Assembly: GCA_937928585.1 (NCBI GenBank)
Contig: CALEZK010000361.1
Location: forward strand, 1 to 51,022
From: an uncultured bacterium
GTDB taxonomy: Bacteria > Hydrogenedentota > Hydrogenedentia > Hydrogenedentales > SLHB01
Direction: 5' to 3'
DNA: 51,022 bases
In this document: positions 13,741 to 39,642 of the stretch, piece after piece
Layout of the letters: each line of letters starts with the position of its first letter
Position numbering within the stretch: the stretch's first letter is position 1
Made by a program: the position numbers and the translations under genes
Notes under the pieces: model-generated
What the model saw: the letters and a program-made list of their open reading frames with translations, nothing else
What the model was told of the DNA's origin: nothing
Databases searched by the model: none

Positions 13741-16293
<2,553 letters not shown>

Positions 16294-16352
16294 TAGTGCG
16301 GTATCGCCATTAATTAATTTGATTAATCAAAGGCAATCAACCGGTTTGCTTC

Positions 16353-16808
16353 ATGATAATCAGAATCGACGATCTGAATGGGTCTGAGATAGCCGCGTTT
16401 CTCAATGAGCATCTCATGGAAATGAAATCTATATCGCCTCCCGAGAGCGTGCATGCGCTTGACCTGGAGGCATTGCGTCGGCCGGAGATAACGTTCTGGA
16501 CGGTGTGGGACGAGAACACGCTGGTTGGGTCCGGAGCGCTAAAAGAGCTAAACGTTGAACATGGCGAGATCAAGTCAATGCGGACGGCCGCGGCATTTAA
16601 GAAAAAAGGCGTCGCGTCCATGCTCTTGACGCATATTCTCGCCGAGGCTCGGAATCGCGGGTATCGCAGGCTTAGTCTTGAAACGGGGTCAATGCCGTTT
16701 TTCGAACCGGCTAGAATGCTCTACTCAAAATTTGGTTTTTCGATATGCGCGCCGTTCTCGAATTATCGCGAAGACGCGAACAGTATATTCATGACTATTG
16801 AGCTTTGA
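16353..16808 (+). CDS. GNAT family N-acetyltransferase
   Basis: 151 aa. The segment GEIKSMRTAAAFKKKGVASMLLTHILAEARNRGYRRLSLETG is the acetyl-CoA binding core. Confidence 0.85.
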   Translation: MIIRIDDLNGSEIAAFLNEHLMEMKSISPPESVHALDLEALRRPEITFWTVWDENTLVGSGALKELNVEHGEIKSMRTAAAFKKKGVASMLLTHILAEARNRGYRRLSLETGSMPFFEPARMLYSKFGFSICAPFSNYREDANSIFMTIEL

Positions 16809-16869
16809 GACCGCACATATTATTTGCGCGATCGATTTTGCGATTTGTAGAGACAAAGGATGCTGGTGA

Positions 16870-19380
16870 ATGCTAGAGAAAACTAACGAGAAAATACTGC
16901 CGATCGCGATTGAGCAGGAAATGAAGACCTCGTTCATGGACTATTCCATGAGCGTTATCGTGAGCCGCGCGTTGCCGGACGTGCGCGATGGTCTGAAACC
17001 CGTGCACCGGCGCATTCTGTATGCAATGCACGAGTTGGGCCTGGTGCATAACCGGGCGTACCGCAAATCGGCGTCGATCGTCGGTGAAACGATGGGTAAC
17101 TACCACCCCCACGGCGATCAGGCCATTTACGACACGCTTGTTCGCATGGCGCAGCCTTGGTCGATGCGGTATCCGCTGATTGACGGTCAGGGTAACTTCG
17201 GATCCGTGGACGGCGACAGCCCAGCGGCGATGCGATATACCGAATCGCGCATGGCCGGTATCACGGCGCAGATGCTCGCGGATATCGAGAAACAGACCGT
17301 CGACGTGACGGACAACTACGACTCGCGCCTCAAAGAACCCACGGTGCTGCCGTCAGCGATTCCGAATCTCTTGGTAAACGGCTCGTATGGTATCGCGGTC
17401 GGCATGGCCACGAGCTGCCCGCCGCACAACATCACTGAAGTTTGCGATGCGGTGATTCACTACATCGACAATCCCGAGTGCAACACGAACGATCTCATGC
17501 GATTCGTGGAAGGGCCGGACTTCCCAACGGGCGGCATCATCTACGGGCGCGAGGGCCTGCCCGAGGCGTATCACACCGGCCGCGGCAAGATTACCGTGCG
17601 CGCGAAGGTGGTGTTTGAGCACGACAAGGCTTCCGGCAAGGACCGCATCATCGTTACGGAAATCCCGTATCAGGTGAACAAATCCCGTCTGATCGAAACC
17701 ATCGCCGGGCTCGTGCGCGAGAAAACGGTTGAAGGCATCACCGACCTGCGCGATGAATCCGACCGCGACGGCATGCGCATTCTTATCGAGGTGCGGAAGG
17801 GCGACGAACCGCAGGTCATTCTCAATCAGCTCTACAAGCACACCCAGATGCAGGAGACGTTCAGCATTCTTATGCTGGCGCTGGTAAACAACCAGCCGCG
17901 CGTCCTGTCGCTGTATGAAGTCATTCATTACTACGTAAAGCACCGCGCGGAGATTGTGAAGCGGCGCACCGAGTTCGATCTGCGCAAAACCGAAGAACGC
18001 GCCCACATCGTCGAAGGCTTGCTGAAGGCGATCGACCATATCGATGAAGTCATCAAAATTATCCGCGCGTCGGAGACACCGGAATCCGCGCGCGACGCGT
18101 TGATTGCGCGATTCGACTTCACGCACATCCAGGCGAACGAAATCCTGGCGATGCGCCTGCGCCGATTGACGGGCCTCGAACGCGAAGAGCTTGAGAAGGA
18201 ATATGCGGAACTGCTGAAGTTGATCGAGATGTATAAGCGCATCCTCTCGAGCGAGCGCACGATTCTCGCCGAAGTTCGCAAGGAACTGCTGGCGGTGAAA
18301 GAAAAGTACGGCGATGCGCGCCGGACGCAGATCCTCGGTGAACGCACCGAATTCAGCGTCGAAGACCTGATCGCTGATGAAGAGATGGTCGTGACGGTAT
18401 CCAACATGGGGTACATCAAGCGCGTTCCGGTGGCGGCTTACCGCAAACAAAAGCGCGGCGGCAAAGGCATCACCGGCATGGACACGAAGGAAGAAGATTT
18501 TGTTTCTGACCTTTTCGTGGCGTCCGCGCACCAATACATGCTGTTCTTCACCAACAAGGGCCGCGTCTACTGGCGCAAAGTCCACGAACTCCCGAAGGCA
18601 AGCCGCACTGCGCGCGGTCGCGCGATTGTAAATGTGCTTGACCTGTCCGGCGACGAGATTGTGACCGCGTGCCTTCCCGTGCGTAACCTCGAGGAAGAGA
18701 ACAAATACATCTTCATGGTCACCGCGATGGGCACCGTCAAAAAGACGGAACTAAAAGCGTTTAGCAACCCGCGCGCGACCGGCATTATCGCGATCAACCT
18801 CGAGAAGAGCGATACGCTTATCGATGTACAGATCACCTCGGGCGAAGACAACATCCTCATCGCCACATACCTCGGCATGTCAATCCGCTTCCCCGAGAAA
18901 GACGTGCGGCCCATGGGTCGCACCGCGGGCGGCGTGATTGGCATCCGTCTGGAAGAAGGCGACCGCGTCATCGGCGTATCCACTGCCGGCGACGACAAGA
19001 CGGTCCTCAGCGTTGTCGAGAACGGTTATGGTAAGCGCACGCAAGTGGGCGAGTATCGCCTGCAGCACCGCGGCGGTTCCGGCATCATCAACATCAAGAC
19101 GACGGAGCGCAATGGAAACGTCGTCGCGATGATGACTGTGGATGACAGCGATGACATCGTCGTGGTCAGCACTGACGGCATCGTGATGCGTTGTTCGGTG
19201 AAGGATATCCGCACCATCGGCCGCAACACGCAAGGCGTGAAGGTAATGACACCCGGAACGGGCGCGAAGGTAAGCGCCGTTGCGCGCGCCATCCCGGAAG
19301 AGAAGGCCGACGAAGCCGCCGAGGCGGCCGCACCCGAAGGCGCGGTGACAACGGACGACGCCGGGGACGAAGAAGAATAG
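16870..19380 (+). CDS. gyrA: DNA gyrase subunit A
   Basis: Motifs are [27 protein letters not shown] and AMRYTE (active-site Tyr), with C-terminal beta-pinwheel repeats and an acidic tail. Confidence 0.97.
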
Positions 19381-30955: not shown

Positions 30956-32941
30956 ATGGCGGAAGAACAGCGTCAAGCACACCTGGGTGATGCGCTTGTC
31001 AAAAGCGACATTATTACGCGCGCGGAATTGGACGACGCAAAGGCGCGCGAGAAAGAATCTGGCGTTCCGTGGTATCGATCCTTGTTGCAGGTGGGTAAAG
31101 TCACTTACGACATGATCGATCAGGGATTGCGTACTGAAATTCATGTTCCGGGAATGGGCGGCGGATCCAAGTCGAAAGATCAGTCATCGCTCGGCAAAGC
31201 TTTGCTCGACATCAAGGCGATCACGCAATCACAATTGAACGAAGCTTTGGCGGAACAAAAGAGCACGGGGCGACTCCTCGGCGAAATACTGATGAGTCGC
31301 GGACTGGTTACGCGCCGAATCATCAATGTGGCGCTCGCGAAACAATCGGGCATGGAATTCAGCGAACTGGATGAAACGCCGAGCTATCAGAACGCGCTCG
31401 ATGCGATTCCGGAAAGTTATGCGCTGAAGTATCAGATGATACCGATCCAGTTGGAAGGCGATCGGTTGACGTGCCTCATCAGCAAGCCGCAATTGCGCAA
31501 CAGCATCGGCGATCTGGGCGTCTTGCTCGGCAAGCGCATGCATCCGATGATGACAACGTGCGACGACATCAAGGCCGAAATTCGCGCGCGGTATAAAGGC
31601 AAATCCATCGTTTCGGGCTCGCGCAAAACTGCCGCGCCCGAAGCGCCGACATTGACAGTGAAGAAAGACAAGGAACGCACTGATGCCGTCGCGAAAGGCG
31701 GCAAAAAGAAAGCAGCCAAGGAGGAGAAAGCAGCCGTGGCCACAGCGCAGGAACCAAAAGAAAAACGCCGCTTCGACGAGATAGCGAAAGAAGCGCAGGG
31801 CGCACCGGTCATCAAGCTGGTGTCGACAATAATTGAAGGCGCAATCAATTCGGGTGCAACAGACGTTCACATGGATCCGCAGGAACCGGAAATGCGCGTG
31901 CGGTACCGAATCGACGGCGTCCTGCACGACGTCATGAGCATTGCGCCGGACATCGAAGCCGCGGTGATATCCCGTATCAAGATCATGTCCGATCTCGACA
32001 TCACCGAAACGCGCCATCCCCAGGACGGCCACATTCGCATCGATTCAAAAATGGGCGAATTCGACGTGCGCGTCGCAACCTTGCCGACGTATCTTGGCGA
32101 ACGCGTTGTGCTGCGCCTGCTGGATCAGTCTTCGGTGCTCTCTGGTATCAAAGATCTTGGTCTTGAACCGGAAGATGAGAAAATTCTCACTCGGATGGTT
32201 TCCCAACCCTACGGCATGATTCTCGTGACGGGTCCGACCGGCAGCGGAAAGACTACGACGCTGTATGCGGCACTGAATCAGAAGAACGTGTTGACGGACA
32301 GTATCGTCACCATTGAAGATCCCGTCGAGTATCAGTTGTCGGGAATTAATCAGGTCCAAATAGATCCGGATATTGATGTGACCTTCGCGAGCACCTTACG
32401 CGCGTCGCTGCGGCAGGATATCGACGTGCTGCTTGTCGGCGAAATCCGCGATGCGGACACCGCCCGCATTGCCATTCGCGCGGCCATGACCGGACACCTC
32501 GTATTCAGCACCTTGCATACCAATGATGCGCCGGAAACGATTTCAACCCTGCGCAACATGCAGGTGCCGTCCTATCTCATTGCAAGTGCGCTTACGGCGA
32601 TTGTCGCACAGCGCCTGGTCCGCAAGATTTGCCCGGATTGCAGAGAAGCCTTTGTGCCCGCGAAGCCTCTGTTGAAGTCCCTTCACCTGCCGGAAACCAC
32701 GAAGAAACTGTATCGCGGCAAGGGCTGTGACTCCTGTTATCACACGGGAAACAAGGGCCGCACCGGTATTTTCGAGATTGTCGAGATTACCAATGAGGTC
32801 CGCAAGATGATTGCCGCCGATGCGGCGATTGAATCCATCACCAAGGCGGCCAAGCTAAAGACCATGGCGGACCGGTGCCGCCAAAAGGTAAAGGACGGAG
32901 TCGTCGCTCCGGAAGAATTCCTGCGCGTAATCCGCACGTAA
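30956..32941 (+). CDS. GspE/PilB-family secretion/pilus ATPase with tandem N-terminal MshEN/T2SSE_N-like modules
   Basis: Walker A GPTGSGKTTTL, Walker B DVLLVGEIRD, His box GHLVFSTLHTN, and tetracysteine CPDC..CDSC. N-terminal residues 78-130 read SLGKALLDIKAITQSQLNEALAEQ-KSTGR-LLGEILMSRGLVTRRIINVALAKQ. Confidence 0.92.
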   Translation: MAEEQRQAHLGDALVKSDIITRAELDDAKAREKESGVPWYRSLLQVGKVTYDMIDQGLRTEIHVPGMGGGSKSKDQSSLGKALLDIKAITQSQLNEALAEQKSTGRLLGEILMSRGLVTRRIINVALAKQSGMEFSELDETPSYQNALDAIPESYALKYQMIPIQLEGDRLTCLISKPQLRNSIGDLGVLLGKRMHPMMTTCDDIKAEIRARYKGKSIVSGSRKTAAPEAPTLTVKKDKERTDAVAKGGKKKAAKEEKAAVATAQEPKEKRRFDEIAKEAQGAPVIKLVSTIIEGAINSGATDVHMDPQEPEMRVRYRIDGVLHDVMSIAPDIEAAVISRIKIMSDLDITETRHPQDGHIRIDSKMGEFDVRVATLPTYLGERVVLRLLDQSSVLSGIKDLGLEPEDEKILTRMVSQPYGMILVTGPTGSGKTTTLYAALNQKNVLTDSIVTIEDPVEYQLSGINQVQIDPDIDVTFASTLRASLRQDIDVLLVGEIRDADTARIAIRAAMTGHLVFSTLHTNDAPETISTLRNMQVPSYLIASALTAIVAQRLVRKICPDCREAFVPAKPLLKSLHLPETTKKLYRGKGCDSCYHTGNKGRTGIFEIVEITNEVRKMIAADAAIESITKAAKLKTMADRCRQKVKDGVVAPEEFLRVIRT

Positions 32942-33729: not shown

Positions 33730-34836
33730 ATGAAGATTCGCATTCCCCGGCAAGACCTCCTTGAAGCGGTCAATAAAGTAAAGACGGTGGTTTCGCCAAA
33801 ATCGGCCTTACCCATCCTTTCTCATATTCTCATGGAAGCCGAGGAGAACGCGCTTAAACTCACTGCAACGGATCTCAAAGTCAGTATTGAGTGCACAGTT
33901 GACTGTACCGTCAAGGAAGCGGGCTCGCTTACCGTATCGTCGCAACGACTCTCGTCCATTCTCGCAGAACTTCCGGAAGGGGAGATATCTCTCGATTTGG
34001 CGGGCAATAGCGTAATCAATCTTGAATGCGGCAAGATCAAGACCAAACTATTCAGCATGAGCGCAGACGAGTTCCCGCCCGTCCGGACCTTTGAGGGAGT
34101 GGAACCACTCACGATTGAGCAAAAGGTCTTGAAAAAGATGTTTCAGAAGACCAGCTTTGCCATTTGCTCTGATCAGGCGCGATACAATCTCACTGGTTTG
34201 CTGTGTGAGATTGCGGACGGTAAATTTACTGCTGTAGCCACCGATGGACGCCGCATGAGCCTCTATTCCGAAAAGGAAGGGATTCCCCGCGGCGTAAACA
34301 TTAAAGTGATTATTCCTGGAAAGATGATCACTGAGCTTGAGCGCCTTCTTGCTGAAAATGGGGAAGTGCTGGTCTATCTCGATGAAAGCCAAGCCGCGTT
34401 CCAGTTCGATTCGCTGCGCCTTGTTACAGCCCTGATCGAAGGCAATTTCCCGAATTACGACATGGTGATTCCCAAGAAGCACGACAAGGAAGGCGTAATC
34501 CCCACTGCCACGTTTATGGAAGCCATGCGTCGTACACGCACCATGACCAACGACAAGTTTAATTCCGTCCGCGTCACGGTCAGCGGAAACCAAATGAAAT
34601 TGAACGTGGTGACGCCGGAAGTGGGTGAGTACGAGGAAGAGTTGGAGTGTGAGTTTGAAGGTGGCACCATCGATATCGCGTTCAACCCGGACTTCGTAAT
34701 CGAGGTACTCCGACGTATCGACACGGAAAAACTCTCCCTGGTTCTGAAAGACGCATCCAGCCCGGGCCTTTTGAAGCCCTACGAAGAAAAGAGTTCACAC
34801 CAGTACTTGAACGTCATCATGCCGATACGGATCTAA
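33730..34836 (+). CDS. dnaN: DNA polymerase III subunit beta (sliding clamp)
   Basis: 368 aa. MKIRIPRQDLLEAVNKVKTVVSPKSALPILSHILMEA..LKLTATDL fits the clamp, and the length suits three domains. Confidence 0.95.
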   Translation: MKIRIPRQDLLEAVNKVKTVVSPKSALPILSHILMEAEENALKLTATDLKVSIECTVDCTVKEAGSLTVSSQRLSSILAELPEGEISLDLAGNSVINLECGKIKTKLFSMSADEFPPVRTFEGVEPLTIEQKVLKKMFQKTSFAICSDQARYNLTGLLCEIADGKFTAVATDGRRMSLYSEKEGIPRGVNIKVIIPGKMITELERLLAENGEVLVYLDESQAAFQFDSLRLVTALIEGNFPNYDMVIPKKHDKEGVIPTATFMEAMRRTRTMTNDKFNSVRVTVSGNQMKLNVVTPEVGEYEEELECEFEGGTIDIAFNPDFVIEVLRRIDTEKLSLVLKDASSPGLLKPYEEKSSHQYLNVIMPIRI

Positions 34837-34929
34837 CTTACTGCTGGCAGTGAGACATCGACCCACATCGGATACCCGGTATCTTTGATCCAAGGCGTTT
34901 TTCTGGAATACAACATCCCGAATTCACCC

Positions 34930-34938
34930 TGTGGATAA
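34930..34938 (-). promoter_or_regulatory. perfect DnaA box downstream of dnaN
   Basis: TGTGGATAA at 34930-34938. Confidence 0.5.
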
Positions 34939-35040
34939 CAATCGATCCAGTGAAGCCATGGAACCTTGTTCCACGTAATGATTGGACGAATCGTTCAGAG
35001 ATGAATCATAAATTATCACCCGAAAGCATGCGGTAAACAT

Positions 35041-35100
35041 ATACTATCACTTGATTTAACGTTTAGATCCTTATATGGAAGTGATTTTATTGATTTTGAA
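35041..35100. other. AT-rich tract with TGATTT-type short repeats (candidate DNA-unwinding element)
   Basis: ATACTATCACTTGATTTAACGTTTAGATCCTTATATGGAAGTGATTTTATTGATTTTGAA. TTGATTTTG recurs at 35251-35259. Confidence 0.35.
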
Positions 35101-35293
35101 AGTTAAAGAAACTGGCAAGTTTAGGGTGTCCTGAAAAGAGTGGAAAACTTGTTGATAGACGGGTTTTTGGTTACGAAATCCGGATTCAGCCAAGCTGGCA
35201 GATTCACTACGGTTTCGCCCAATGAATAGAATCTTGGCTTCCTTTTCCTATTGATTTTGCAACCACGGGATGGCAGCATATCGCGAATCTTCG

Positions 35294-35376
35294 CCTGCCG
35301 AAACTGGCGATGCGACGTGGAACTAACCACGGGGAATCGGCAGGGATTCTTCAATAAACGCCGTTCGCCTGGGCAC
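35294..35376 (+). ncRNA. ZTP riboswitch (pfl motif)-like aptamer in the gcv operon leader
   Basis: P1 is CCUGCCG (35294-35300) paired with CGGCAGG (35338-35344). The conserved ACUGGCG is at 35303-35309. P2 is GUGG-AACUAA-CCAC (35317-35330), followed by GGGGA (35331-35335). After a 15-nt linker, the 3' subdomain GCC-GUUCGCCU-GGGCA (35360-35375) offers a CGCC/GGCG pseudoknot. Confidence 0.8.
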
Positions 35377-35447
35377 TTTGGCACCGCTGGTGTGGCATGC
35401 CATGGAAGTACGATCGCAGGTAATACTGCTGACCCGGAGGCGGAAGA

Positions 35448-36530
35448 ATGCGGCGCACTCCTCTCTATGATGAACATATTGCTTTGGGAGGCAAGGTAGT
35501 CGACTTTCACGGTTGGGCCTTGCCTGTGCAGTTCGCCGGAATTCTGGACGAACATCACCATACGCGATCCAAAGCAGCGCTATTCGATTGTTCGCACATG
35601 GGCGAGTTCATTGTGACAGGTCAGGATGCCGTGCAGGCATTCAGCGATCTCGTTTGTCTCGACCCTTTCAAAATCCCAATTGGCCGCGGAAAATATGGCG
35701 CCATTCTACAAGAAGACGGCGGTATCATCGATGATGTTATTGCATTCCGATTGGGTGAGTTTGATTTGTTTGTCGTGACGAATGCTGGGCCGCTGGATAT
35801 CGTTTCTAAAAAGTTGTGCGCTGAACAGGCCAAGTTCGCATCTGATTCCGTATTGCGAGATGTTTCCAACGACACCGCGAAAATTGATATTCAGGGTCCC
35901 ATCGCTCGAGATGTGCTTTTGTCCGAGATTCCGGAATGTGGATCATTGAAGTATTACCAGGCGCGTCGCGCTCAATGGAAGGGTATCGACATCGTATTGG
36001 CGCGGACCGGCTATACCGGCGAGATGGGTTTTGAATTATTTGTGCCGAATCGAATCGCTGTGGATCTCTGGCGTGCATTACTGGCATATCCAAACGTGAA
36101 GCCCGCGGGGCTCGGGGCGCGGGACACCTTGCGTACAGAAATGTGTTACGGATTGTCTGGACAGGATTTCGATACCTCGCGAACACCCTTGGAAGCTGCC
36201 ATGGCATCGTTTATCGCGTGGGATAAAGATTTCGTTGGTAAACAGTCATTGGTTGCGCAACGCGATTCCGGAAACTATGCAGTCCTGACACCAATCAAGA
36301 CGGCAGATCGTCGTGCCCCTCGACATGGATTCGATGTACAACATAACGGTTCCGTTGTAGGCGTTGTTACCAGTGGAACCTTTGGGCCCAGTGTGGGTCA
36401 CGGCGTCGGCCTCGCTTATCTGCCGCAAGAACTTTTGCATCCAGGAACGAAACTTACCGCTGGACCAAAAGAACTCGAAATAGAAGTTACTTCCGTTCCC
36501 ATATATACCGCCGGTACCTGCAGAAGCTAA
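35448..36530 (+). CDS. gcvT: glycine cleavage system aminomethyltransferase T
   Basis: RRTPLYDEHIALGGKVVDFHGWALPVQF..ALFDCSHMGEF..ARTGYTGEMGFE. GGAGG lies 7 nt upstream of the ATG. Confidence 0.95.
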   Translation: MRRTPLYDEHIALGGKVVDFHGWALPVQFAGILDEHHHTRSKAALFDCSHMGEFIVTGQDAVQAFSDLVCLDPFKIPIGRGKYGAILQEDGGIIDDVIAFRLGEFDLFVVTNAGPLDIVSKKLCAEQAKFASDSVLRDVSNDTAKIDIQGPIARDVLLSEIPECGSLKYYQARRAQWKGIDIVLARTGYTGEMGFELFVPNRIAVDLWRALLAYPNVKPAGLGARDTLRTEMCYGLSGQDFDTSRTPLEAAMASFIAWDKDFVGKQSLVAQRDSGNYAVLTPIKTADRRAPRHGFDVQHNGSVVGVVTSGTFGPSVGHGVGLAYLPQELLHPGTKLTAGPKELEIEVTSVPIYTAGTCRS

Positions 36531-36542
36531 GGAGCCCAGACC

Positions 36543-36926
36543 ATGTATCCCGATGACTGTAAATACACCAAAGAACACGAATGGATTCGCGCAGAGGGGG
36601 GCTTGTATGCCGTGGGCATCACCAGCTTTGCCGCGGAACAACTTGGCGACGTAACCTACGTTGACTTGCCAAAGCCGGGTAAGCAAGTAAAGCAGGGCGA
36701 ATCCACCGCCGCCGTCGAATCCGTTAAAGCTGCGAGTGACATATACGCGCCTGCGGGGGGCCGCGTCGTGGAAGTAAATACCGCGCTGGGAGATGCGCCT
36801 GAATTGGTCAATGAGGGACCATTCGAAGCAGGTTGGTTTTTTAAGCTCGAAGGGGTCGATGCCGCCGAACTTTCCAATTTGATGGATGCTAAAGCATACG
36901 CCGCATATGTGGAGGCGCAACACTAA
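36543..36926 (+). CDS. gcvH: glycine cleavage system protein H
   Basis: YTKEHEWIR..GITSFAAEQLGDVTYVDLP..ESVKAASDIYAP (lipoyl-Lys motif). Confidence 0.95.
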   Translation: MYPDDCKYTKEHEWIRAEGGLYAVGITSFAAEQLGDVTYVDLPKPGKQVKQGESTAAVESVKAASDIYAPAGGRVVEVNTALGDAPELVNEGPFEAGWFFKLEGVDAAELSNLMDAKAYAAYVEAQH

Positions 36927-38212
36927 TGTCGTGGGCTCCAGCGACCGCCTCAGAGCGGGATGATATGCTTTCCGTCATCGGCGTAAAGACGATCGAAGAT
37001 TTATTTACCTCCGTGCCGGCGCACCTGCGTCCGAAATCGTGGAACCTTCCTGCGGGGATCTCGGAAATGGCCGTGCGCGATGAGATGGCAAAGATCGCCG
37101 CGAAGAATGCCGCAGCACATACCAGTTTCCTCGGTGGAGGTGCATACGATCATTACATCCCCGCGGCGATTGATGCGCTCGTTTCGCGCGGAGAGTTTTA
37201 TACCGCATACACGCCGTATCAACCTGAATGCGCGCAAGGAACCCTGCAAAGCATTTACGAATACCAATCCGCGATTTGTCGATTGACAGACATGGAATTC
37301 GCGAACGCTTCGCTGTATGACGGCGGAACGGCGGTCTTCGAGGCAACGACCATGTCCGTGCGTATCACAGGTCGCAGCAAGATTGTCGTTCATGATTCGC
37401 TTAGTCCCATATACCGCCGTATGCTTGACACGCACACTGCACACCTGCAACTGGATATAGTTACCGGGGACGATCCGACCGACGCCGCGTGCGTTATCGT
37501 TCAGAACCCAAGTTTTCTCGGTACGATTGCCGACTACACTGCGCTGGCGAAGCGTTGCCACGATGCCGGCGCGCTCTTGGTTATCTCCTTCTATCCGATT
37601 TCACTGGGACTCGTGAAGTCGCCAGGGGAAATGGGAGCGGATATCTGTATCGCAGAAGGACAGTGTCTCGGCGTTCCCCTTGCTTTCGGCGGTCCGTGGT
37701 TGGGAATTATGGCTACTCGAAAGGAACACGTTCGGAAGATGCCCGGCCGCATCGCCGCGGAAACTTCGGACGCGCAAGGCCGACGAGGATTCGTCCTCAC
37801 GTTGCAGGCACGCGAACAGCACATACGCCGTGACAAAGCCATGTCCAACATTTGCTCGAATGAAGCGCTTTGCGCGCTTCGGGCGCTGATGTATATGTCG
37901 CTGATGGGCAAGGAAGGATTCCGGGACGTTGCGCGGCATTGTTATTCAAAAGCCGAGTACCTCAAGTCGAAGCTTACCTTCGCGACAGTATTGAACGAAG
38001 GTCCGACCTTTAATGAATTCGCGGTGCGCCTTCCAAAGAATGCGGAAACAGTGATTGCCGAGATGGCGAAACGCGGATATCTCGCGGGATTGCCTCTCTC
38101 TTCGCTCGACGCAGGTGCGGATACCGACTTGCTCATTGCCGTTACCGAACGCCGTTCACGCGCCGAACTCGACGCGTTTTCCGCAGCGTTGGAGGAAGTT
38201 TCATGCAATTAA
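36926..38212 (+). CDS. gcvPA: glycine dehydrogenase (aminomethyl-transferring) subunit 1
   Basis: 428 aa. FLGGGAYDHYIPAAID..YTPYQPECAQGTLQ fits subunit 1, and a TAATG overlap joins it to gcvH. Confidence 0.93.
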   Translation: MSWAPATASERDDMLSVIGVKTIEDLFTSVPAHLRPKSWNLPAGISEMAVRDEMAKIAAKNAAAHTSFLGGGAYDHYIPAAIDALVSRGEFYTAYTPYQPECAQGTLQSIYEYQSAICRLTDMEFANASLYDGGTAVFEATTMSVRITGRSKIVVHDSLSPIYRRMLDTHTAHLQLDIVTGDDPTDAACVIVQNPSFLGTIADYTALAKRCHDAGALLVISFYPISLGLVKSPGEMGADICIAEGQCLGVPLAFGGPWLGIMATRKEHVRKMPGRIAAETSDAQGRRGFVLTLQAREQHIRRDKAMSNICSNEALCALRALMYMSLMGKEGFRDVARHCYSKAEYLKSKLTFATVLNEGPTFNEFAVRLPKNAETVIAEMAKRGYLAGLPLSSLDAGADTDLLIAVTERRSRAELDAFSAALEEVSCN

Positions 38213-39642
38213 TCTACGAAAAATCCGTGCGCGGACGCCGTGCAATCACGCTCGATCCGCTCGATGTTCCCGAGGCTACGCTGCCGGCATCCGTCGCGCG
38301 TACCAAATCCGCGGAACTGCCGGAGTTGGCGGAGATCGATATAGTCCGTCATTTCACCAATCTTTCGCGGCGAAATTTCGGTGTCGACTCGCACTTCTAT
38401 CCGCTAGGTTCCTGCACAATGAAGTACAACCCGAAGATTGCGGAAGTAGTCGCGGCCATGCCGGGCTTTGCCCACATTCACCCGCAACTTTCCACTTCGT
38501 CCGCGTATTGGCCTATTTGTCAGGGTGCCTTTGAACTTATCTATGAAACGGAGAAGTGGCTCGCCGAAATCGCGGGCATGAAAGAGACCTGTCTCCAACC
38601 CATCGCGGGCGCGCATGGCGAACTTGCGGGAACGCTGCTCATTGCAGCGTACCACCGGGAACGAGGCCAAACGCACAAAGATACGATACTCATCCCCGAC
38701 TCAGCGCACGGAACGAATCCCGCAAGTGCCGCCATCGCGGGATTCAAAGTACTTGAAGTGCCTTCGCATGAAGATGGCACGATGCGGCTGGACAGCGTCA
38801 AAGCGGTGATGAACGAAAACATTGCCGGACTGATGATGACGTGCCCCAATACGCACGGACTTTTTGAACCGGCCGTGGGCGAAATCGCGGAGTACATGCA
38901 CCAGCACGATGCACTGCTTTATTACGATGGCGCAAACCTGAACGCGATCATCGGCAAAGCGCGGCCTGGCGATCTCGGTTTCGACGTGATGCATTACAAC
39001 CTGCACAAAACCTTTGCGACACCGCACGGCATGGGCGGTCCGGGTTCCGGGCCTGTCGGCGTTGGCGAGCGACTTGTTAAATATCTCCCGGGACCCCGTG
39101 TCGTGAAACAACAGGGCGGTTTCGCGCTTGAGATGCCGGAAAAATCGATTGGGCGATTGTCACAATTTTTCGGGAACTTCGGTATGGCGGTACGCGCATA
39201 CGCGTACATGCGTCATCTCGGGAAGGACGGCCTCCGCGAAGTCGCGGAGAATGCCGTGCTCAATGCAAACTATATCTGGGCGCGTTTGAAGGATACCTAT
39301 ACGCCTGCATTCGACTTGCCCTTCATGCACGAGTGCATTTTCACGGCAGCGCCAGAGGCGAGAGATGGGGTCCGCGCGCTCGACATCGCGAAAGCCCTGC
39401 TCGACTATGGTTTCCACGCGCCGACCGTGTACTTCCCGCTGACGGTGAAGGAAAGCATCATGATTGAGCCAACGGAAACGGAATCGCGCGAAACGTTGGA
39501 TTCGTTCTGCGATGCCATGCTCGAAATCGCTCAGACGATCAAGTCGAACCCCGACGCCCTGCACGACGCGCCGATAACGACACCGGTTGGCCGTTTGGAC
39601 GAGGTAAAGGCCGCTCGGCAGTTGAATTGTGCGTGTCTGTGA
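38203..39642 (+). CDS. gcvPB: glycine dehydrogenase (aminomethyl-transferring) subunit 2
   Basis: 479 aa. PLGSCTMKYNP..HYNLHKTFATPHGMGGPGSGPVGV contains the PLP-Lys region. Confidence 0.93.
   Translation: MQLIYEKSVRGRRAITLDPLDVPEATLPASVARTKSAELPELAEIDIVRHFTNLSRRNFGVDSHFYPLGSCTMKYNPKIAEVVAAMPGFAHIHPQLSTSSAYWPICQGAFELIYETEKWLAEIAGMKETCLQPIAGAHGELAGTLLIAAYHRERGQTHKDTILIPDSAHGTNPASAAIAGFKVLEVPSHEDGTMRLDSVKAVMNENIAGLMMTCPNTHGLFEPAVGEIAEYMHQHDALLYYDGANLNAIIGKARPGDLGFDVMHYNLHKTFATPHGMGGPGSGPVGVGERLVKYLPGPRVVKQQGGFALEMPEKSIGRLSQFFGNFGMAVRAYAYMRHLGKDGLREVAENAVLNANYIWARLKDTYTPAFDLPFMHECIFTAAPEARDGVRALDIAKALLDYGFHAPTVYFPLTVKESIMIEPTETESRETLDSFCDAMLEIAQTIKSNPDALHDAPITTPVGRLDEVKAARQLNCACL

Follow-up and report, generated by a model that had tools for sequence, protein, structure and literature searches.

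A ZMP/ZTP riboswitch aptamer upstream of the glycine cleavage operon in Hydrogenedentota, with a predicted translational expression platform

Introduction

Riboswitches of the ZMP/ZTP class, for which a 2015 study by Kim, Nelson & Breaker is reportedly the founding paper, are built from helices P1 and P2 with an ACUGGCG junction, a variable linker, a P3 hairpin carrying CGCCUGGGC, and a GGCG:CGCC pseudoknot. They are located in the 5' leaders of one-carbon metabolism genes and follow an ON-switch logic. Upstream of gcvT, a different element is said to operate, the glycine riboswitch (gcvT motif, RF00504), reportedly described as an ON switch by Mandal et al. in 2004.

The aptamer of the ZTP class corresponds to the pfl motif, RF01750 (Weinberg et al. 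2010), and ZMP/ZTP has been described to build up under 10-formyl-THF shortage (Bochner and Ames 1982, as summarised in PMC9481103). Two described systems are of particular interest for the comparison made here. In the ZTP riboswitch of Pectobacterium carotovorum rhtB (Kim et al. 2015), control is translational, with the start codon and the ribosome binding site acting as the invading strand (PMC11754884, Nat Commun 2025). In Bacillus and Oceanobacillus, tandem ZTP/glycine riboswitches place two aptamers before a serine-biosynthesis gene (Sherlock et al. 2022, PMC9481103).

The locus analysed here lies in a 51 kb stretch of DNA, referred to as the window at its whole length, from the uncultivated phylum Hydrogenedentota. 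Its aptamer has the architecture of the ZTP class and, as a prediction, the same ON-switch logic, and it differs from the class members in host phylum and in preceding a glycine cleavage operon. With P. carotovorum rhtB it would share the type of platform, the Shine-Dalgarno (SD) sequence and start codon being predicted to invade P3 with no intrinsic terminator involved; in the model the partners are U35364 for G35450, the P3 5' strand for CGGCG, and the pseudoknot strand for the SD region. The gene downstream is however gcvT rather than an rhtB-type exporter, the linker of the window is longer (~55 nt, with two hairpins), and the P. carotovorum platform has been characterised whereas that of the window is predicted. 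Genomic position, regulated operon and predicted ON direction are common to this locus and to the glycine riboswitch, but the two aptamers are unrelated, and a ZTP signal reports one-carbon demand where glycine reports substrate excess. The tandem ZTP/glycine switches similarly tie ZTP signalling to the glycine/serine one-carbon supply within one leader; in the window, by contrast, a single ZTP aptamer precedes the glycine cleavage genes themselves. Neither the class of aptamer nor its one-carbon logic is new, and translational platforms of this type are established as well. The association of ZTP aptamers with gcvT is unnamed in the ZTP literature searched, which comprised full text and the supplements of Weinberg 2010, the gene tables of the founding paper lying outside that search; the association has perhaps not yet been written up, and it fits the known regulon logic anyway.

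The aptamer in the gcvT leader

The initial annotation, made by reading the sequence, had placed a ZTP/ZMP aptamer in the gcvT leader, and covariance-model matching agrees with it. When the whole window was scanned with Rfam 15, RF01750 matched at 35290..35381 on the forward strand, end to end over model positions 1-86, with 58.1 bits where the gathering score is 39 and an E-value of 6e-7 over the whole window (8e-9 when restricted to the local region); this was the sole Rfam match across the 51 kb. A full-length match so well above the gathering score makes a chance match remote, and by every sequence-based criterion tested the element belongs to the ZTP riboswitch class as a genuine member.

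All of the aptamer elements that had been listed are present, and the positions given for GGCG, CGCCUGGG and CCCGGAGGCG are exact. In the Rfam alignment, sub-domain 1 (35294..35344, forward strand) comprises P1, the junction, P2 and a G-rich strand. P1 is formed by CCUGCCG at 35294-35300 pairing with CGGCAGG at 35338-35344, and the alignment extends it to 35294-35301 / 35337-35344. The junction ACUGGCG occupies 35303-35309 and contains the 5' strand of the pseudoknot, GGCG, at 35306-35309. The P2 hairpin, GUGGAACUAACCAC, at 35317-35330, fits the Rfam consensus GUGGA...ACCAC and is directly followed by GGGGA at 35331-35335 (GGGGAA in the Rfam alignment). A linker of ~15 nt separates sub-domain 1 from sub-domain 2, the P3 hairpin GCC-GUUCGCCUG-GGC (35360..35374, forward strand), which also fits the consensus and within which CGCC at 35366-35369 provides the 3' strand of the pseudoknot, complementary to the GGCG of the junction. 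The uppercase consensus positions of RF01750 are all intact in the window, those of the junction, P2, the pseudoknot and the CGCCUGGGC core included.

The conserved cores of the glycine riboswitch had been reported missing from this leader. RF00504 indeed gave no match in 34900-35600, even at E<=10, and at its gathering threshold no match either in the window or in 80 related loci.

Gene context

The aptamer ends 66 nt 5' of the gcvT ATG, on the same strand. The glycine cleavage operon named in the initial annotation is recovered by protein family models, each gene exceeding its NCBIfam cut-off: gcvT, encoding the aminomethyltransferase (T protein), at 35448..36530 (NF001567, 339.8 bits, cut-off 300; TIGR00528, 291.7, cut-off 235.85); gcvH, encoding the lipoyl carrier H protein, at 36543..36926 (NF002270, 161.5 bits, cut-off 117); gcvPA, for glycine dehydrogenase subunit 1, at 36926..38212 (NF001696, 564.5 bits, cut-off 364); and gcvPB, for subunit 2, at 38203..39642 (NF003346, 698.3 bits, cut-off 441), all on the forward strand. 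A consensus scan returned a weak, tentative candidate for a sigma-70-like promoter, TTCACT-18-TAGAAT, at 35203..35232 on the forward strand, ~58 nt 5' of the aptamer; it is the one site seen where 2.2 are expected by chance, and it is not conserved in relatives.

Upstream of the leader lies dnaN (33730-34836). The ~450 nt between dnaN and the aptamer (34837-35289) hold no Rfam match and no convincing ORF; among the relatives an upstream dnaN is common only to L004, and nucleotide conservation in this interval is almost nil. Two long ORFs that overlap the leader, 35121-35561 (reverse strand, 146 aa) and 35251-35499 (forward strand, 82 aa), are probably spurious. The remaining genes of the window are housekeeping ones (gyrB, gyrA, fumarase, PNPase and a PilB-like ATPase), and no one-carbon or purine gene besides the gcv operon is found in the window. 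In this neighbourhood gyrB and gyrA are adjacent (13765-19380), dnaN lies 14 kb downstream of them without a neighbouring dnaA, and dnaN is preceded by a PilB/MshE-like ATPase (30956-32941) with a c-di-GMP-binding N-terminal domain.

Conservation across Hydrogenedentota gcvT loci

Relatives were collected by a GcvT protein search with one genome per GTDB species, from which the 80 closest loci (49-78% identity) were retained; most are labelled Candidatus Hydrogenedentota and the rest 'uncultured' or Nitrospirales/Nitrospiraceae, taken here as mislabels. These relatives make membership of the window in the same phylum most probable. Upstream DNA is available for 78 of the loci, and 71 of them show a match to RF01750 at the gathering threshold (41-69 bits) directly 5' of gcvT and in the same orientation. 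Nine of the 80 loci are negative, two of them being without upstream DNA, and the seven others still gave no match when rescanned at E<=1; gcvT is closely preceded by another gene, with a small or nil spacer, in four of these seven.

For scoring the alignment of 69 aptamers (68 distinct sequences), the pseudoknot was added to the Rfam structure. Of the cells scored, 88.8% are paired; shifting the 3' partners by one to three columns lowers this to 40-51%. Changes on both sides were observed in 9 of the 12 pairs of P1, as illustrated by column pair 10-56, where 54 sequences have CG, 14 have UA and no sequence lacks the pair. P2, the junction and the P3 core GCCG..CGCCUGGGC are invariant or nearly so, and the pseudoknot GGCG:CGCC is paired in 99.6% of cells, three of its four pairs never varying and the fourth varying on one side only. 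Covariation consequently says nothing for or against P2, the pseudoknot and the P3 core, whose invariance is typical of the ZTP class. The initial annotation had looked to relatives for conservation or compensatory changes in P1, P2 and the pseudoknot, and the aptamer stands when judged in this way: it is conserved, P1 covaries, and P2 and the pseudoknot are conserved with too little variation for covariation to bear on them.

One of the aptamer-negative loci deserves separate mention. In L015, also from the Hydrogenedentales, positions 2357-2437 are homologous to the aptamer of L026 and appear to be a decayed copy, with no Rfam match at E<=1. It is changed at otherwise invariant positions (ACUGGCG to AGUGGCG, the P2 3' strand CCAC to CGCG, and CUGGGC to CUGAGC) and keeps the SD and start region GGAGGCG...AUGCGGC. 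This element would be a pseudo-riboswitch or, less likely, a variant of altered function. In two other Hydrogenedentota loci, L003 (1408-1453, reverse strand) and L051 (1661-1709, forward strand), an Acido-Lenti-1 RNA (RF01687) scoring above its gathering threshold lies a few hundred bases 5' of the gcvT riboswitch.

Predicted expression platform in the window

It had been proposed that the 3' part of the aptamer, CGCCUGGG, pairs with the SD region of gcvT, CCCGGAGGCG, which spans 35433-35442 and includes GGAGG seven bases 5' of the ATG at 35448. This pairing is present in the minimum free energy (MFE) fold computed with ViennaRNA, where it is extended to a helix of ~17 bp (35359-64/35450-55, 35365-70/35438-43, 35371-73/35433-35 and 35374-75/35430-31). 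The anti-SD/anti-start segment of this fold, 35359..35375, corresponds to the P3 5' strand, the pseudoknot strand and GGG, and its partner, 35430..35455, comprises the SD GGAGG (35436-35440), the ATG (35448-35450) and codons 2-3 (CGGCG), both on the forward strand. Within the partner strand the predicted helix engages three of the five GGAGG bases, the G of the AUG codon and the five coding bases that follow. Pairing of P3 and the pseudoknot and pairing with the platform strand are predicted to be mutually exclusive. Between the two strands, the linker (35379..35429, forward strand) folds in the MFE structures into two local hairpins, 35379-35402 and 35416-29, which bring both strands of the sequestering helix together; its sequence is not conserved among relatives.

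With sub-domain 1 enforced, the OFF fold has a predicted energy of -61.8 kcal/mol, and the ON-constrained fold, in which P3 is enforced and the pseudoknot bases are withheld, one of -54.7 kcal/mol. The gap of 7 kcal/mol is close to the contribution of the pseudoknot, whose duplex energy is -8.1 kcal/mol, and the predicted states would therefore be near balance, as a switch needs. The energy of the whole-leader fold is unremarkable (z = -1.2 and -0.5). In the ON-constrained fold, 35436-35461 form a weaker local hairpin between the SD GGAGGCG and GCGCACUCC, through a CUCC in codons 4-5; GCGCACUCC represents codons 2-5 and spans the conserved Thr-Pro codons of GcvT. Such a hairpin, if it forms in the ON state, could set the basal translation level. 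Neither the promoter/terminator scan nor a scan for hairpins with a U-run returned an intrinsic terminator in the window.

Generality of the platform and controls

The related leaders were folded from P3 to +17, scoring the pairing of the 15-nt P3/pseudoknot segment with the start site (-20..+9). At least five expected pairs between the two were found in 51 of 72 leaders, ~28% of the related leaders showing little predicted SD pairing. The start sites of the other genes of the operon served as controls: at least five expected pairs were obtained in 72% of 71 leaders, compared with 27% when the start site of gcvH, gcvPA or gcvPB of the same genome was swapped in and 36% when the gcvT start site was shuffled (MWU p ~1e-8 to 4e-10 over the controls, values that overstate independence since the loci are related by descent). 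Mean duplex energy was likewise -17.1 kcal/mol for gcvT start sites vs -10.7 to -12.9 kcal/mol for those of the other gcv genes (p 2e-17). Motifs of the GGAG type are comparable at the gcvH, gcvPA and gcvPB start sites of the same genomes (94%); what gcvT has in addition is complementarity beyond the SD core, contributed by AGGC(G) and by the CGGC that follows the start codon. AGGC 5' of the start is seen in 56% of ZTP-linked gcvT vs 13% of other gcv genes, and NTGCGGC, which matches the P3 strand GCCG, in 35% vs 0%.

Duplex energies hardly differ between non-cognate and cognate gcvT start sites (-16.7 vs -17.1 kcal/mol), which means that the support for the anti-SD pairing consists of conserved complementary motifs and not of lineage-specific covariation. 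Shuffled gcvT start sites still gave duplexes of -14.3 kcal/mol, and GC-rich composition therefore accounts for part of the signal. An apparent covariation between the P3 loop dinucleotide and the bases after AGGCG (12 doubly complementary cases vs 5.5 expected, p ~6e-4, uncorrected for phylogeny) was set aside, as the register differs among leaders and cognate and non-cognate duplexes are alike.

An intrinsic terminator was also considered as the platform of the Hydrogenedentota leaders and rejected, a convincing terminator-like hairpin with a U-run having been found in only one of the 72 leaders, that of L033. The translational ON switch with SD masking put forward in the initial annotation is supported, at the level of modelling, by the folding, by the start-site controls over 71 leaders and by the essential absence of terminators.

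ZTP-like aptamers before gcvT in other lineages

Metagenomes were scanned with a pattern joining CGCCTGGG to the GcvT N-terminus, and the 99 matches were searched with our own covariance model and with Rfam. The pattern spans one leader length class, so that the count outside Hydrogenedentota is a lower bound. Among the matches, 37 loci are further ones of Hydrogenedentota type, and at least two additional groups of loci carry a ZTP-like aptamer 5' of gcvT.

The first group consists of at least three loci (L136:485-620; L109:1208-1363, reverse strand; L092:74-207), and the GcvT of L136 is identical in sequence to an NCBI entry labelled Candidatus Omnitrophota. In their aptamers P2 is set apart from the ACUGGCG junction by an insertion of 60-75 nt, and P3 is A/U-rich (AAAAACC...GGGUUUUU) with U residues after it. 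Their scores, 34-38 bits, lie slightly below the gathering score of 39 for RF01750, for which reason routine Rfam annotation would miss them.

The second group, of at least six loci (L170:7102-7178, reverse strand; L125, L179, L106, L138 and L111), represents a lineage apart from Hydrogenedentota, with a GC content of ~0.6 and a GcvT 42-45% identical to that of Hydrogenedentota. Here a TTTACA-N17-TATAAT promoter precedes a compact ZTP-like aptamer (~30-33 bits), in which CUGGCC or CUGGCU replaces CUGGCG in two members; a classic terminator, GCCUGGGUUUUCUUGAAACCAGGC plus a U-run, comes after the aptamer and overlaps CGCCUGGG. In L180, from the third lineage, the divergent upstream gene is thyX, another methylene-THF consumer.

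The link between ZTP-like aptamers and gcvT thus recurs in at least three lineages with differing platforms, a recurrence that strengthens the functional reading and lowers any claim to uniqueness.

Discussion

Taken together, the data make it probable that the 5' leader of gcvT-gcvH-gcvPA-gcvPB contains a functional ZMP/ZTP riboswitch, most likely a translational ON switch; we infer the identity of the ligand, the direction of the switch, and an action on translation rather than on transcription. In the mechanism proposed, the 3' half of the aptamer (35359-35375) would pair, in the absence of ligand, with 35430-35455, masking the SD and the start codon, and the 30S subunit would be unable to load. 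A shortage of 10-formyl-THF would lead to accumulation of ZMP/ZTP, which on binding at the interface of the sub-domains would lock the GGCG:CGCC pseudoknot and P3; the anti-SD strand would thereby be withdrawn and the ribosome binding site freed. The resulting glycine cleavage would load THF with a methylene unit, giving 5,10-methylene-THF, a precursor of 10-formyl-THF.

The aptamer may be functional and yet exert its control mainly at the level of transcription, with ligand-dependent structure or ribosome loading modulating Rho-dependent termination in the leader or in early gcvT, and SD masking being secondary. A block of translation commonly exposes mRNA to Rho, the phylum leaders are long (31-227 nt from aptamer to ATG), and the gcvT leaders of the second group described above, from another lineage, have a clear intrinsic terminator overlapping CGCCUGGG; transcriptional control is moreover the mode of most studied ZTP riboswitches (Weinberg 2010; PMC11754884). 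Hairpins with a U-run are however missing from the window and from all but one of the 72 related leaders, and the 3' half of the aptamer finds its complement in the ribosome binding site with the start codon, a complementarity that directly predicts control of initiation. We give mainly transcriptional control a small, though appreciable, probability. A lower one is assigned to the idea that the SD complementarity is a mere by-product, regulation by a real aptamer working through, for example, mRNA stability. A CCU resembling an anti-SD is part of the invariant CGCCUGGG, the GC content of the leaders is high, and shuffled start sites still reach the duplex energy and pairing frequency given above; the equally good pairing of cognate and non-cognate sites and the unremarkable z-scores of the leader point the same way. 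Against this, the gcvH, gcvPA and gcvPB start sites pair much less well despite their comparable SD motifs, and the extra complementarity outside the SD core is directed at GCCG of the P3 5' strand, a sequence that does not resemble an anti-SD, so that given these controls the by-product account is unlikely.

It may finally be asked whether the RF01750 match arose by chance, is a relic, or represents an aptamer that has come to recognise something other than ZMP/ZTP. Binding of ZMP is a prediction from the conserved consensus core here, and the decayed copy of L015 indicates that loss occurs in the phylum. The score lies 19 bits over the gathering threshold, though, the aptamer is retained phylum-wide with compensatory changes in P1, and the consensus positions are intact in the window; a chance or relic match is effectively excluded, and a shifted specificity is included in the same very low probability. 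The translational ON switch is accordingly kept as the preferred reading of the window.

The result leaves the general understanding of riboswitch action unchanged. If the platform is as predicted, the ribosome binding site and the first codons of gcvT may have evolved complementarity to the invariant core of the aptamer that binds the ligand, and the more than 70 natural leaders of this kind would form a set of predicted translational ZTP platforms useful for studying how one aptamer is wired to varied platforms. On the ZTP-control reading set out below, variants scoring under the Rfam threshold, among them the Omnitrophota form with its insertion, would be overlooked by Rfam annotation.

Sequence evidence suggests that a candidate phylum without a cultured model uses the ZTP alarmone. 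It is possible, and proposed here with reserve, that the gcv operon came under ZTP instead of glycine control in Hydrogenedentota and did so separately in Omnitrophota and in a third lineage. Only tentatively can it be suggested that one-carbon-demand sensing has replaced glycine sensing at the gcv operon throughout the phylum, and that this replacement is as yet unreported; should gcvT be absent from the published ZTP regulon, the association would constitute a new, phylum-wide regulatory link. Glycine cleavage would then be tied to 10-formyl-THF shortage and not to glycine excess, which would offer a clue to their physiology: in these organisms the pathway would be a source that delivers one-carbon units on demand, instead of a means to dispose of surplus glycine.
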